A stretch of DNA of 64,000 nucleotides, from the NCBI GenBank assembly GCA_024683775.1, contig GCA_024683775.1_4106.1. One strand, 5' to 3'. Numbering within the stretch: the first letter of the stretch is position 1; each line of letters begins with the position of its first letter. Origin of the DNA: a phage. The position numbers and the translations under genes are program-made. Shown here in pieces: positions 60,373 to 62,409 of this stretch. Below the pieces are notes generated by a model that was not told the origin of the DNA, did not search any database, and saw only the letters and a program-made list of their open reading frames with translations.

Positions 60373-60498
60373 TTCAACATATAGACAGGGGAAGCTCCGC
60401 AGGGAAAGCATTGGACAGGCTTTAACAATTAGAAGAATTGTTAAAATTCAGCCTGGACAAATGCGATCACTAGGATTCTCCCCAGGCTAAACCCCGTA

Positions 60499-60580
60499 AT
60501 CATATGTAGTCATAAGTAATCATATATAAACATTTAAGTAATCATTTATAATCACTACTGTGATTAGTATTGAGTACTAG
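60499..60580. repeat. cluster of GTAATCA / TGATTAG short repeats
   Basis: GTAATCA read four times in direct orientation plus inverted copies. Confidence 0.45.
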
Positions 60581-61039
60581 AGTGTAATAGAGTACAGGAA
60601 TGTGCTCGTTTAATCAAGAACGTAGCAGTACTGCCCCAAAAGTATTCAGTACTGAAGGTGTCGATATGCCACTAAGTAGGCAGAGGAAGTCTGCCGTACT
60701 TTGTAGTTTCCAAGCTCCTTTTCCATTTTGCAAATTACATCAAATGTAATCAAAAGTAATCACGCAATGATTAGTACTGAATTATTACTTTCACCTTAAT
60801 TTCAATTACCCTTTTACCCTTCGGGGTAAAATTCAATTACCCCTTGAGGCTCCAGCAAAAAGTTGGTTAGTACTCCATCCTAAATCTCGATCCTAAAAAT
60901 TTTGGAGTACCTATGAAATAAAAGTTGGATCTTCGAAAGTTGAAATTTACGTTGGGACGTTTATGATTTGTGGGATATAATGATGTTTGTAGTCGGGTAG
61001 TTCTCAAGAATATCAGTACTGAATGGTGAAAGAAAGTTA

Positions 61040-61067
61040 TTGACATTATGATTCAGTACTGTATAAT
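61040..61067 (+). promoter_or_regulatory. sigma70-like promoter TTGACA-N16-TATAAT with CAGTACTG spacer inside the noncoding region
   Basis: hexamers read directly; no convincing ORF downstream. Confidence 0.5.
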
Positions 61068-61439
61068 GTTCTACATAGGGTGATGAGTTGCTGCGAACAA
61101 TTCATTTACTCTACCTCCTGTCGTGAGACAGTACAGAAAAGATAGTTCCTCCTGTGGTGGTACATCTTTTTGAACCTCATATGAAAATCGTAATAACAGT
61201 ACTGATATTAACAGAATGGTATCAGTACTGATTTTAATCTAAAGCATTATGCCACCAGCACAAGCTGGTGGATTCCCTCTAACAGTATTCAGTACTACAT
61301 GATAGTCTTCATCCTCCTAGGGTAACATAGTGAGGGCTATGATGGCAGTACTGAATACTCCCTTTCAAAAGATAGATCTATGGTATAGTACTGACGGATT
61401 TTGGGTGTAGTTACCCTGGATGGATTTTGGGCGTAGATA

Positions 61440-61580
61440 TGTCTAGCCCTCCAGAAGTCTGGAAGTAAAGATGGCTATCCATCTAGACGGCTAAACGGCT
61501 AGATTTCTGGATGGCTGGATGGCTAGACGTTTGGACGGCTAAACTGCTAGATGGTTACACGTCTGGAAGTATAGACGGCT
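61440..61580. repeat. iteron-like degenerate tandem repeats (GGCTAGACG / GGCTAAAC / TCTGGAAGTA units)
   Basis: repeated units read directly; no ORF. Confidence 0.5.
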
Positions 61581-62201
61581 AAATCAAAATTTTATTTTGT
61601 TTTTTCCAATAGTTCCCCTACCGCGTGGGGATAGTTTCCCCGCAGTATCTGGCGTTAGATTTTTCTGAATCTGGAATCATTATCTTATAAACTGGGGGCA
61701 ATGTCAACGACCTGGACGGATATTTTTAAAAATTTTTTCAGTACTGAATTTTGGGCGTAACTATGCACCCGGTGGGCTTGAGTCTTTCTCGACTTGATGG
61801 AACTATTATACAGTACTGAAAAAATAAAGCAATACCCTGGAAGCAAAAAAGTTTTAATTAATTTGCTTGCTATCCTGGGCCGGACTATGGTACTATATTT
61901 CAGTACTGAGAAAGTGCGTTTACCTGCTAGGGTGCGGGAGTGTATCCTTTTTTTATATCTTGAATTTTGGGCGGATCTTCCCACCCCCTGGGGTATCCGC
62001 TTTCTCGCGTCTATGTAGTAATTATACGCTTTTTCAGGATCAAGTCAATACCTAAAAACAAAATAATTGAAAATAATTTAACGCGTTTAAACGGCCTGTA
62101 AAGCCCTGGAATGATTGGAATGGTGCAAATGTATAGCTTATGTGTATTAATGCGTTAGAATGCGTCTGAGGCCGTTTTACGGGGTATAGGGATGATTTAG
62201 T

Positions 62202-62352
62202 GGATTGATTCAGTACTGAATAATAGTACTCCTATATAGAAAGATAGTTCCCCTGGATTGATTCAGTACTGAATAATAGTACTCCTATATAGAAAGATAG
62301 TTCCCCTGGATTGATTCAGTACTGAATAATAGTTCCCCTATATAGAAAGAAA
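62202..62352. repeat. 53-bp direct repeat, 2.8 copies
   Basis: unit GGATTGATTCAGTACTGAATAATAGTACTCCTATATAGAAAGATAGTTCCCCT with period 53; third copy diverged. Confidence 0.8.
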
Positions 62353-62380
62353 ACTATTTTAAAAGTATTTGTAGAAAGTA

Positions 62381-62409
62381 CTTGCACCGTACTGATAAAA
62401 GCGTATAAT
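62381..62409 (+). promoter_or_regulatory. module-specific promoter CTTGCA-N17-TATAAT followed by leader hairpin
   Basis: same promoter box recurs at 62841 and 63518; hairpin GCGGGAA-CAC-TTCCCGC at 62424..62440. Confidence 0.55.

Follow-up and report, generated by a model that had tools for sequence, protein, structure and literature searches.

The DNA analysed here, a stretch of 64,000 nucleotides from a phage (contig GCA_024683775.1_4106.1; hereafter the window), is by its sequence that of a PBECO4-like jumbo coliphage of the genus Asteriusvirus. A 2,028-bp interval near its right side (positions 60373–62400), poor in open reading frames (ORFs) and dense in repeats, in all likelihood represents the left end of the packaged chromosome together with the untranslated leader of a long direct terminal repeat (DTR). 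The interval is also judged, with good confidence, to be a composite cis-acting region and neither a gene cluster nor an iteron-type origin. Among its elements is a tandem array of 8-bp boxes (61437–61580) resembling operators of the host repressor MetJ. A preliminary description had proposed an iteron-type replication origin as its headline and a packaging site or genome-end region as a fallback; it is the fallback that is supported by sequence comparison, the left end and the start of the DTR mapping inside the interval at position 60675. The position of the ends in this genus has already been published, and the genome-end part is to that extent known. As far as could be found, there is no earlier description of how the leader is built, of its conservation in several genera, or of metbox-like arrays within or close to the terminal repeats in three families of phages.

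The interval matches 42 phage records at 87–99 % identity, nearly all of them Asteriusvirus jumbo coliphages with genomes of 310–386 kb (PBECO4, 121Q, G17, fEgEco12 and Sharanji among them). For fEgEco12, a linear genome of 374,733 bp with direct terminal repeats of 20,993 bp was published, the repeats having been detected with PhageTerm and verified in restriction digests. The first 400 nt of this record correspond to window positions 60675–61074 at 98.5 % identity, its position 1 falling on 60675. Its first 40 nt come back at position 353,741 of the same record (= 374,733 − 20,993 + 1), upstream of which unique sequence homologous to window 60373–60674 is located. Five records start with AGTAGGCAGAGGAAGTCTGCC at the position equivalent to 60675 (fEgEco12, vB_Ec-M-J, BF17, E9.1 and CRJP21), and WPEC3 and G17, deposited in the opposite orientation, end there, such that seven separate records share this end. 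In independent work, G17 (judged by its coverage) and Sharanji (by PhageTerm) were described as terminally redundant over ~20 kb, a repeat of 21,525 bp is annotated in the vB_Ec-M-J record, and repeat_region annotations are also present in Klebsiella phage Kae01 and Pectobacterium phage CBB.

By homology to these mapped genomes, the virion DNA of this Asteriusvirus lineage is shown to begin at window position 60675, at the junction GATATGCCACTA|AGTAGGCAGAGGAAGTCTGCC (element 60661–60704, plus strand). Positions 60373–60674 are, therefore, the last unique sequence before the right copy of the repeat, and positions 60675–62400 are, on the same homology, the non-coding first 1.7 kb of a ~21-kb DTR. 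The properties that define this class of chromosome were found as follows: the fixed virion end by homology only (PhageTerm and digests of fEgEco12), the duplication at the other end of the sequence to the right of the cut, with unique sequence to its left, in fEgEco12, and a specific conserved cut sequence (GATAT(G/C)CCACTA|AGTAGGCAGAGGAAGTCTGCC in an alignment of eight genomes) next to a hypervariable spacer. It weighs against the assignment that the terminus was transferred from relatives of 95–99 % identity.

The surroundings of the cut harbour several conserved signals. The cut site itself is 92–98 % identical in relatives, except A4 and CMSTMSU. A hairpin (−6.9 kcal/mol, z −4.4) starts at the terminal nucleotides of the chromosome, and the mapped end of Kae01 likewise begins with a hairpin. 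Ahead of the cut lies the hypervariable and indel-rich spacer (60555–60660, from alignment with relatives), which is only 40–62 % identical in five good-quality relatives and 85 % identical in UE-S1; it always closes with a TTCAGTACT box 12–21 nt ahead of the cut, and in Kae01 TTCAGTACT is located 15 nt ahead of the cut of that phage. Further upstream, 185–255 bp ahead of the end, two adjacent hairpins (60418–60492, plus strand; −13.1 kcal/mol, z −3.7) lie within a conserved block. In the first stem, pairing is preserved by compensatory changes, the window having TTAACAAttagaagaaTTGTTAA where A4 and UE-S1 have AACATATgttgcATATGTT, and the block GTTAAAATTCAGCCTGGACAAATGCGATCACTAGG is nearly invariant over the eight genomes.

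The GTAATCA repeats already listed in the preliminary description were recovered as five copies (60496, 60516, 60538, 60746 and 60756), with periods of 10–12 and 22 bp according to Tandem Repeats Finder (TRF). They form two sets, one on either side of the cut. The left set (60496–60560, plus strand) consists of three phased exact copies plus variants, 115–180 bp ahead of the cut, and is kept in all relatives; the right set (60739–60782, plus strand), 65–105 bp inside the end, comprises two direct copies, an inverted TGATTAG and then AGTACTGA, and is conserved in all relatives, the divergent A4 included. Cut sequence, terminal hairpin and GTAATCA repeats on both sides would together constitute the site at which the end is generated during packaging, with the left set as candidate recognition repeats for the machinery responsible. 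While these features fit sequence-specific end formation, we infer rather than observe which of them are read by the terminase, and the role given to the GTAATCA repeats, a guess from their position, counts as a point against this part of the interpretation.

The earlier statement that the interval is ORF-poor has been strengthened, since most of its ORFs of 44–99 aa gain stops or frameshifts in close relatives. The 44-aa ORF at 61967–62101 is open in six good-quality relatives, but has a TTG start and no third-position bias, and substitutions in all ORFs of the region are spread evenly across codon positions. None of the four region ORFs compared with PHROG matched a family, whereas all five flanking genes scanned did, and the curated records of 121Q, PBECO4 and A4 have no coding sequence annotated in the region. 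With ORFs that break or drift in relatives and four scanned without PHROG match, hidden genes were rejected; apart from the one 44-aa ORF that stays open, the marks of protein-coding sequence (ORFs kept open, a third-position excess, family matches) were not found. A search with ARAGORN detected no tRNA gene in the region, and comparison with Rfam yielded no family at gathering score and only chance-level matches (E ≥ 0.86) at a permissive threshold, on which grounds tRNA or known RNA genes were likewise rejected. Its status as a genome end would account for the empty annotation of this region.

Lack of genes does not go along with lack of constraint. Leader identity to most relatives amounts to 87–99 %, with 74–86 % in some segments of A4, JNE01 and CMSTMSU, and conservation of the leader is no lower than that of the flanking gene array. 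An interpretation as decaying sequence, i.e. functionless gene remnants and recombination scars at the repeat boundary, would accommodate the indel-rich stretch 60555–60660 and the variable copy number of a 53-bp repeat at the right side of the leader, but is hardly credible in view of this conservation, of boxes more conserved than their flanks, and of elements persisting in genera with no more than roughly one third of their proteins in common.

The latter refers to CBB and Kae01, which belong to other genera and display the same leader layout and element order; CBB was reported to have only 33–38 % of its proteins in common with PBECO4 and 121Q. The terminal repeats of both phages open with a stretch of 1.3–1.8 kb that contains almost no annotated genes. 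Shared elements of the leaders are AGTACT boxes, the GTACTCCA...TGGAGTAC inverted repeat, GATTTTGGGTGTA boxes and a repeat array. A rightward consensus-like host promoter is found ~290–370 bp from the end in the window, CBB and Kae01; as read from the sequence, it has the form TTGAC(A/G)-17-(C/T)A(T/C)(A/T)AT in Kae01 (near +330) and CBB (near +290). The CCACCAGC-N4-GCTGGTGG hairpin and a leftward TTGACA-17-GATAAT are shared with Kae01, while an A+T tract is clear in CBB and represented in Kae01 by a short T-rich stretch only. A further cross-genus element combines the box CCA(A/T)T(A/G)G(C/T)T..CCGCG with a hairpin kept through compensatory changes and GCAG(T/A)ATC. Searches with the CBB leader (blastn) revealed matches at ~630–1080 in Serratia phage BF, the Erwinia pEa_SNUABM phages and XbC2, at 3398–3901 in GAP32 and at 86–332 in the Yersinia fHe-Yen9 records.

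All motif classes named in the preliminary description were found again at roughly the positions it gave, above chance frequency. Its iteron-like units GGCTAGAC/GGCTAAAC are indeed present as a phased tandem array, albeit one of metbox-like boxes: 18 contiguous 8-bp boxes with the consensus A-G-A-(C/T)-G-(T/G)-C-T occupy positions 61437–61580, 763–906 bp from the end. The motif GGCTARAC occurs six times in the window, five of them inside the region, versus 1.8 expected. Taken over all 18 boxes, the consensus is identical to the metbox of E. coli, AGACGTCT, and the boxes follow each other in tandem without spacer, as in metboxes. When all 65,536 8-mers are ranked by how well they describe the array, the top 12 include every one of the eight rotations of AGACGTCT. 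By a simple match score, the array (18 boxes) reaches 72 %, as compared to 75 % for the metJ/metB and 65 % for the metF operators of E. coli MG1655.

The window was additionally scanned with the published information matrix and thresholds for MetJ (Augustus and Spicer 2011), requiring at least one quarter of the consensus score for each box and at least the consensus score (12.58 bits) for the site total. A single site was retrieved from the 64 kb, comprising 14 contiguous boxes (61469–61580) with 98.9 bits; the per-box threshold is passed by 16 boxes, i.e. these 14 and two just upstream. In 5.4 kb of E. coli DNA used as control, only the metJ/metB (31.2 bits) and metF (24.9 bits) operators were detected, with four boxes each, and 30 shuffles yielded at most three boxes and 20 bits. 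The mean score per array box (7.1 bits) compares to 7.8 and 6.2 bits in these true operators. Variation in the left half-box is also that of natural metboxes (position 1 A>G, position 2 G>A, invariant A at position 3, position 4 C>T), and strains differ in the length of the array by complete 8-bp units. Of the properties of a MetJ operator, two or more contiguous unspaced 8-bp boxes, scores above the matrix thresholds and a host possessing MetJ (E. coli metJ) are thus present. The E. coli MetJ sequence, compared by tblastn with 50,697 phage records, retrieved host contaminants only, and a phage-encoded MetJ was rejected on this result. In the literature searched, no paper was found that links CAGTACTG, GGCTAGA repeats or MetJ/metboxes to phage ends.

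Arrays of the same kind were encountered in further phages. The homologous array of CBB consists of 7 + 4 + 2 boxes, and the array part of the CBB query matches T5-like Vibrio and Aeromonas phages as well as T7-like Ermolevaviruses. T7-like PGT2 carries nine boxes (56 bits) at 38–109 bp from its left end and a second copy near its right end. Among T5-like phages, nine boxes (88.5 bits) are present in Providencia phage PR1 (9620–9691), 15 (112 bits) in Vibrio phage Pontus and 28 (221 bits) in Aeromonas phage AhSzq-1. The terminal repeat of PR1 is annotated at 1–10,461, placing its array 770 bp inside the boundary, in an untranslated stretch of 1.2 kb. A pattern scan of IMG/VR returned 54 stretches, most of which are perfect 8-mer microsatellites (AAATGTTT, GGAAGGCT etc.) and unrelated; the only comparable ones are heterogeneous arrays on contigs whose size is that of T5-like or T7-like phages. 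MetJ was reported to be confined to five gammaproteobacterial orders, and the named hosts of array-bearing phages all belong to these five, except for two CBB relatives reported on Xanthomonas.

Several other repeats accompany these arrays or replace them. In PR1 (9500–9700) and Pontus (about 785–1020 of the segment examined), the array directly follows consensus DnaA boxes (TGTGGATAA), with 2–3 copies in PR1 and one in Pontus, and the arrays of Pontus and AhSzq-1 lie upstream of T5 DRD-like repeats (GTGCAAATYCGAYA; AGTACTAATTCGACA in AhSzq-1). Kae01 harbours, at 690–800, GAGAAT/ATTCTC dyads, among them GAGAATAATAATGATTATC and a second site that overlaps it, both of which agree with the Fur-box consensus in 16 of 19 positions; one site inside a gene, at 2342, matches at 17 of 19. 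The Kae01 dyads may be a second kind of host-repressor array.

On this sequence evidence, MetJ would be expected with good confidence to bind the array DNA in vitro. That such binding is the function for which the array was selected is a tentative proposal, somewhat short of probable, and a number of observations speak against the MetJ interpretation of the array. G is nearly as frequent as T at box position 6, where the matrix penalises G. Overlap or adjacency of operator and promoter was not found: the array starts ~90 bp downstream of the leftward promoter P_L (minus strand), and the rightward promoter P1 (plus strand) is located ~370 bp upstream. Neither T5 itself nor Kae01 has a metbox-like run. 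Kae01 shares the leader, yet has a GAGAAT/ATTCTC repeat at the position of the array, although Klebsiella possesses MetJ. Finally, the two CBB relatives reported on Xanthomonas, which is without MetJ, keep the array.

Some of these observations equally feed the main rival explanation for the array, according to which proteins of the phage, and not MetJ, occupy the array and the other repeats. Candidates are a small terminase of the ribbon-helix-helix type or an accessory factor of packaging or partition; the array would then belong to an extended pac-like site, and its likeness to metboxes would be convergence. Ribbon-helix-helix proteins (omega, ParG, Arc) typically target short contiguous repeats. 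The subterminal position in three phage families, the different repeat at the same place in Kae01, the retention of the array in the Xanthomonas-reported relatives and its distance from any promoter, too large for classical repression, would all suit a phage protein. On the other hand, all hosts of the three families share MetJ and no phage record encodes a MetJ-like protein; period, palindromic consensus and tolerated substitutions all fit natural metboxes; neither the 5.4 kb of E. coli DNA nor the 64 kb of phage DNA contains a false positive at the thresholds used; the array lies 760–900 bp from the cut, beyond known distances between terminase site and cut; and the three families are not known to share such a binding protein. 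Taken together, binding by a phage protein is regarded as rather unlikely, albeit the alternative that deserves most attention.

If the array is a MetJ site, host MetJ together with S-adenosylmethionine (SAM) is predicted to coat it cooperatively from +763 to +906, which would give a nucleoprotein segment of ~110–145 bp just inside the end and downstream of P_L. The most likely role of such a segment would be that of a subterminal roadblock or an architectural element acting on transcription, on the entry of the DNA or on the processing of the end: it could limit transcription towards the end, mark or organise the subterminal DNA, or affect DNA entry in the way proposed for the DnaA boxes of T5. 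Titration of MetJ is the alternative role, and is ranked below the structural one. Phages of the T5 and T7 type shut down or destroy the host DNA early, and derepressed host met genes are, therefore, of doubtful use to them. Extended to all array-bearing phages, the proposal reads that at least three unrelated phage families (Rak2/PBECO4-like jumbo myoviruses, T5-like siphoviruses of Vibrio, Aeromonas and Providencia, and T7-like Ermolevaviruses) carry MetJ "super-operators" of 9–28 boxes within ~1 kb of an end and inside the terminal repeats, recruiting the host's SAM-sensing repressor onto incoming and replicating DNA for block or architecture, or for titration; this generalization is possible, though on balance doubtful.

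The array also stood at the centre of the replication-origin interpretation. According to the latter, the 8-bp units are iterons for a phage initiator beside an A+T-rich unwinding element, or an origin of the T4 oriF/T7 type operates, in which the P_L transcript forms an R-loop in the A+T tract (61581–61606) and primes synthesis. In favour of an origin stands the arrangement of a conserved leftward promoter, a conserved A+T tract within ~70–90 nt and then the repeat array; the exchange of the array for a different repeat in Kae01 would be expected from co-evolution with a specific binding protein, and the cumulative GC skew has a minimum near 60 kb. This skew, however, reflects gene content, because it is negative at 56–60 kb although the genes there are on the plus strand, and only 3.6 kb are visible to the right. 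The repeat units are contiguous 8-bp palindromes and not helically phased Rep sites of 17–22 bp, and the A+T tract measures only 26 bp. Of the 14 matches to the DnaA box (TTWTNCACA) in the window, a total at chance level, none is in the region, which is likewise devoid of T5-like DnaA boxes. Nine flanking and leader ORFs compared with PHROGs and five flanking genes compared with Pfam yielded families of unknown function only. A T7-like phage has the same array 38–109 bp from its end, T5-like phages have it near an end in untranslated DNA, and the T5 origins themselves are, according to the literature, located near the genome centre. The headline of the preliminary description is, accordingly, not supported, and an origin in this interval is considered quite improbable, although a promoter-primed one (P_L with the A+T tract) may exist.

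Next to the array, the palindrome AGTACT is the most conspicuous sequence of the leader. Counted as a motif, it is present in 21 boxes between 60573 and 62382, 13 of which are extended to CAGTACTG and eight to TCAGTACTGA. The perfect palindrome TCAGTACTGA, of which at least a dozen copies or close variants had been noted in the preliminary description, has eight of its 15 window copies in the region (60646, 61013, 61222, 61738, 61900, 62210, 62263 and 62316). While representing 3 % of the window, the region contains 13 of 48 CAGTACTG and 21 of 218 AGTACT copies. In the window as a whole, AGTACT is ten times over-represented (218 observed versus 21.8 expected) and CAGTACTG is the most frequent 8-mer, with a density of ~6.4 per kb in the region versus ~0.56 per kb elsewhere. 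The region is hence a local peak of a genome-wide motif, and the leader the densest AGTACT cluster in the window.

The excess of AGTACT is also found inside genes, in all reading frames. The motif occurs in promoter spacers as TTGACA-N10-AGTACTGTATAAT (11523, 15485, 26848 and 61055), across -35 boxes as AAAGTACTTGCA and in terminator stems as GCCAGTACT-N3-AGTACTGGC. All 13 leader boxes from 60773 to 62212 are kept in six of six relatives, and box columns are 92 % identical versus 79 % in the flanks. The first 3 kb of CBB and Kae01 contain 23 and 27 copies, respectively, versus ~1 expected, and an excess was observed in the three Rak2-like genera sampled. In terms of sequence, AGTACT/CAGTACTG is a lineage-wide signal at the DNA level, and the palindromes most likely bind a dimeric phage protein. 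Identity with LexA, ArgR or TrpR sites was rejected by eye, since half-site order and spacing do not fit.

Promoters of the sigma70 type were recognized on both strands of the leader. Rightward ones, conserved in the eight genomes, are located 270–390 bp from the end at 60940–60967, 60952–60981 and 61040–61067 (P1; all plus strand). P1 is a perfect consensus promoter (TTGACA-16-TATAAT, 12/12) with CAGTACTG in its spacer, the two sites at 60940–60981 being weaker. The leftward promoter P_L (61679–61707, minus strand; TTGACA-17-GATAAT, 11/12) is conserved in Asteriusvirus, has TTGACATTCTACCCAGATATTGAGATAAT as counterpart in Kae01, and faces the chromosome end through a hairpin box, the A+T tract and the array. 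A second leftward promoter (62021–62048, minus strand; TTGACT-16-TATAAT, 11/12) has both hexamers conserved in the eight genomes. The term "regulatory hub" chosen in the preliminary description is fair in this respect, with promoters on both strands and palindromic boxes conserved in the leader.

By analogy with T5 and T7, the left end would enter the cell first, and would then present two or three rightward host-type promoters within 400 bp, followed further in by the two leftward promoters and by early genes, each with a strong promoter and a 5' hairpin of its own. Against this scenario it must be said that the first-entering end and the firing of any leader promoter are inferred.

P1 would give rise to a short untranslated transcript (candidate, 61075–61236, plus strand) with a 5' stem-loop, a conserved CTGTCGTGAGACAG hairpin and a palindromic 3' hairpin. 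The latter consists of two inverted CAGTACTGATA boxes (61197–61230) followed by ATTTTAAT and is terminator-like (z −4.2). Of the 34 predicted pairs of the transcript fold, five, in the 5' stem, show compensatory changes, on the basis of five sequences only. The short hairpins pointed out earlier thereby find a counterpart in several structures that fold better than shuffled controls (z −3.7 to −4.8). One may consequently view the leader as mainly a set of small non-coding RNA genes (the P1 transcript; leftward ones from 62013 and 61672) acting as regulators or protein sponges, with the DNA repeats reflecting RNA motifs. Strong conserved promoters on both strands followed by hairpins, the five compensatory pairs and a box at 61604–61650 that keeps its pairing across genera are in accord with this view. 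Against it stand the lack of any Rfam match even at the permissive threshold, covariation drawn from only five close sequences, and the equal enrichment of AGTACT in genes in all reading frames; moreover, the 8-bp boxes and TCAGTACTGA are palindromic, which points to recognition of double-stranded DNA by dimers. RNA genes as the main content of the leader are, therefore, unlikely, and the composite cis-acting DNA region remains the preferred interpretation.

The remaining leader elements are described from the end inwards. An inverted repeat (GTACTCCA-N29-TGGAGTAC; 60868–60912, plus strand) surrounds CCTAAA(T) repeats (TRF period 13; fold z −2.6); it is invariant across Asteriusvirus, the leader of Kae01 contains two copies of it, and CBB has TTTTGGAGTACC. 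The hairpin CCACCAGC-N4-GCTGGTGG (61253–61272; −9.9 kcal/mol, z −4.8) is the one conserved in Kae01. Its form CCACCAGC-ACAA-GCTGGTGG is replaced by the exact reverse complement (loop TTGT) in fEgEco12, 121Q, JNE01 and UE-S1, i.e. the whole palindrome is flipped between close strains. Two GGATTTTGGG(T/C)GTAG boxes (61395–61442, plus strand) are placed directly ahead of the array, with more copies at 61745–61766 and 61961–61982; the three window copies of TTTTGGGCG are all within the region, and the array is preceded by GAATTTTGGGTGTAC in CBB and GATTTTGGGTGTAC in Kae01. The 26-bp A+T tract AAATCAAAATTTTATTTTGTTTTTTC (61581–61606), conserved in Asteriusvirus and CBB, fills the interval between the array and the hairpin box. 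The latter (61604–61650) comprises the conserved box CCAATAGTTCCCCTACCGCGT, the hairpin GGGGATAGTTTCCCC and then GCAGTATC, and is shared with CBB (CCATTAGCTCCCCTTCCGCGAC-CTGGATAGAACCAG-GCAGAATC) and Kae01 (CCATTGGCTAGCCTACCGCGA-CGGAATATAATATTCCG-GCAGTATC); its hairpin is maintained by compensatory changes (read by eye), while the fold alone is not significant (z −1.8).

Further to the right, a terminator-like hairpin (AGGGTGCGGGAGTGTATCCT, then TTTTTTT; 61929–61955, plus strand) was recognized from the sequence. The paired elements GGGTGCGGGAG(TGTATC) and GCACCCGGTGGG occur twice in the window (61765–61778 with 61929–61948, and 63925–63942 with 63972–63985), and CBB (1005–1075) has them in the form CCCACAGGGTGCGG...CCGCACCCTGTGGG. 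The complementarity of the halves GGGTGCGGGAG/GCACCCGGTGGG suggests a conserved long-range stem on one strand. The 53-bp direct repeat of the preliminary description was retrieved as a tandem repeat of 2.8 copies with 97 % matching (62201–62350; element listed as 62201–62359, plus strand); copy number is strain-variable, and each copy contains TTCAGTACTGAA, AGTACT and GATAGTTCCCC.

The right limit of the leader is set by a promoter (AAAGTACTTGCAC-N16-TATAAT), a 5' hairpin (GCGGGAACACTTCCCGC) and the first gene of the DTR (62379–62827 in total, plus strand). This gene (62408–62827) corresponds to fEgEco12 g01 and belongs to PHROG 7352 (E 1e-59). The early DTR genes share a promoter of the form AAAGTACTTGC(A/T)-N16-TATAATGTTTTACATC, directly followed by a GC-rich 5' hairpin, either GCGGGAACACTTCCCGC or GGGGAATAGTTCCCC, as noted at 62420–62436, 62880–62898 and 63555–63572. 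The recurring ATAGTTCCCC motifs, also reported in the preliminary description, have four of their five window copies inside the region; those in the leader are half-copies of the second of these 5' hairpins (GGGGAATAGTTCCCC).

To the left of the interval, two families of tandem paralogous genes extend over most of the neighbouring DNA. About 20 genes coding for ~355–450 aa each occupy 22 kb on the minus strand (32962–55470) and are separated by GCCAGTACT-N3-AGTACTGGC terminator hairpins; two of these paralogues were scanned and gave weak RCC1-like beta-propeller matches (E 1e-7 to 3e-18) under the Pfam cut-off. They are followed on the plus strand (55575–60372) by about 20 mini-genes of 59–77 aa, which reach up to the junction and are interrupted by a 219-aa ORF (57575–58234). 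The last mini-gene belongs to PHROG 11711 (unknown function), and the mini-gene array is strongly strain-variable. GC skew over the mini-genes amounts to −0.15 to −0.22 despite their location on the plus strand, the opposite of plus-strand genes at 1–33 kb.

The right chromosome end, which lies outside the window, is a conserved specific site in three genera (...CCT|TAGCGA), with the consensus (G/C)(C/G)GT(A/C)A(C/T)(C/G)CT|TAGC(G/C)A derived from the repeats of fEgEco12, vB_Ec-M-J, Kae01 and CBB. Some 40–90 bp upstream of it, a TTGGACTATG motif and a GGTAATCCCTT hairpin are conserved in Asteriusvirus and CBB. A link between the array and this end via GGCTAAA was considered and dropped: the right end of Kae01 and CBB reads CTAAAGG(C/G)C, without array motif, and GGCTAAA is therefore merely part of the conserved right-end site.

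The genome-end status of the interval is ordinary and agrees with the published termini of the genus; a practical consequence is that records of the genus could take a common, biologically correct start at AGTAGGCAGAGG. The novelty resides in the anatomy of the end, as even for T5 little is understood of the cis-acting signals that phages with long terminal repeats have at their ends. The leader offers a conserved and dissectable set of them (cut and terminal hairpin, GTAATCA repeats, inward promoters, lineage-wide palindrome), and the MetJ-box array is the surprising element, with a concrete prediction for the testing of which one purified protein suffices. If true, it would tie a host SAM sensor to phage ends as a new kind of host-factor use by phages, and would bear on the role of the untranslated repeat regions in T5-type terminal repeats. 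Together with the Fur-box-like repeats of Kae01 and the DnaA boxes of T5-like phages, "host-repressor landing pads at phage chromosome ends" would then represent a general, so far undescribed design.

Among known systems, the leader is to be compared with the untranslated, repeat-rich DNA close to the ends of phages with long terminal repeats, of which T5 is the best-known case. The left terminal repeat of T5 was reported to contain the untranslated Repeat Regions 1–3, including the injection stop signal region with consensus DnaA sites, and the DnaA boxes in the injection-stop region were proposed to affect DNA entry. The likeness consists in sites for host DNA-binding proteins, predicted ones in the leader, and in the presence of the same 8-bp array in the equivalent region of PR1, Pontus and AhSzq-1. 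In T5 and PR1 (mapped ends), however, this region is located at the inner (right) boundary of the repeat, ~0.5–1 kb from the right end, whereas it is at the outer left end here. DRD repeats (TGTGCAAATCCGACA) and DnaA boxes are found in T5, which lacks the 8-bp array, while the leader in the window has no DnaA box; the nine DRD repeats of T5 were accordingly rejected as the same element. Two-step DNA injection is a feature of T5 and is not known for the phage of the window.

The left end of T7 combines a specific end, a gene-free stretch with short repeats and the early promoters A1–A3. The leader resembles it in its specific end, its gene-free stretch and its tandem strong inward host-type promoters within a few hundred bp, but the T7 repeat measures 160 bp as compared to 21 kb here, and the 1.7-kb leader has leftward promoters as well. 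Transcription-driven DNA entry is a feature from the T7 side and would apply to the phage of the window by analogy only. The TCCATCCTAAA/TCCATCCTAAAT repeats inside GTACTCCA/TGGAGTAC (60873–60897) may resemble the CCTAAAG repeats that lie next to the terminal repeat of T7.

Compared with iteron-type origins (lambda ori, P1 oriR, plasmid oriV), the interval has in common direct repeats beside an A+T-rich tract and the lack of genes, but its repeats are contiguous 8-bp units versus phased ones of 17–22 bp, no nearby initiator gene was identified and DnaA boxes are absent. Terminase sites with flanking repeats and host factors are exemplified by the P1 pac hexamers, SPP1 pacL/pacR and lambda cosB with IHF. 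The cut in the window is similarly flanked by phased GTAATCA repeats at −180 to −115 and +65 to +105, and a host DNA-binding protein may serve as architectural factor here too; what differs is that the phage of the window is cut specifically at two distinct sites, which lie 21 kb from each other, and that the array is ~0.8 kb from the cut. E. coli MetJ operators (metJ/metB, metF, metA, metC, metE/R and metK) usually contain 2–5 boxes. With these operators the array shares contiguous 8-bp boxes and the AGACGTCT consensus; it differs from them by 14–18 boxes versus four each in metJ/metB and metF, by the lack of promoter overlap, by the frequent G at position 6 and by its location on phage DNA near a chromosome end.

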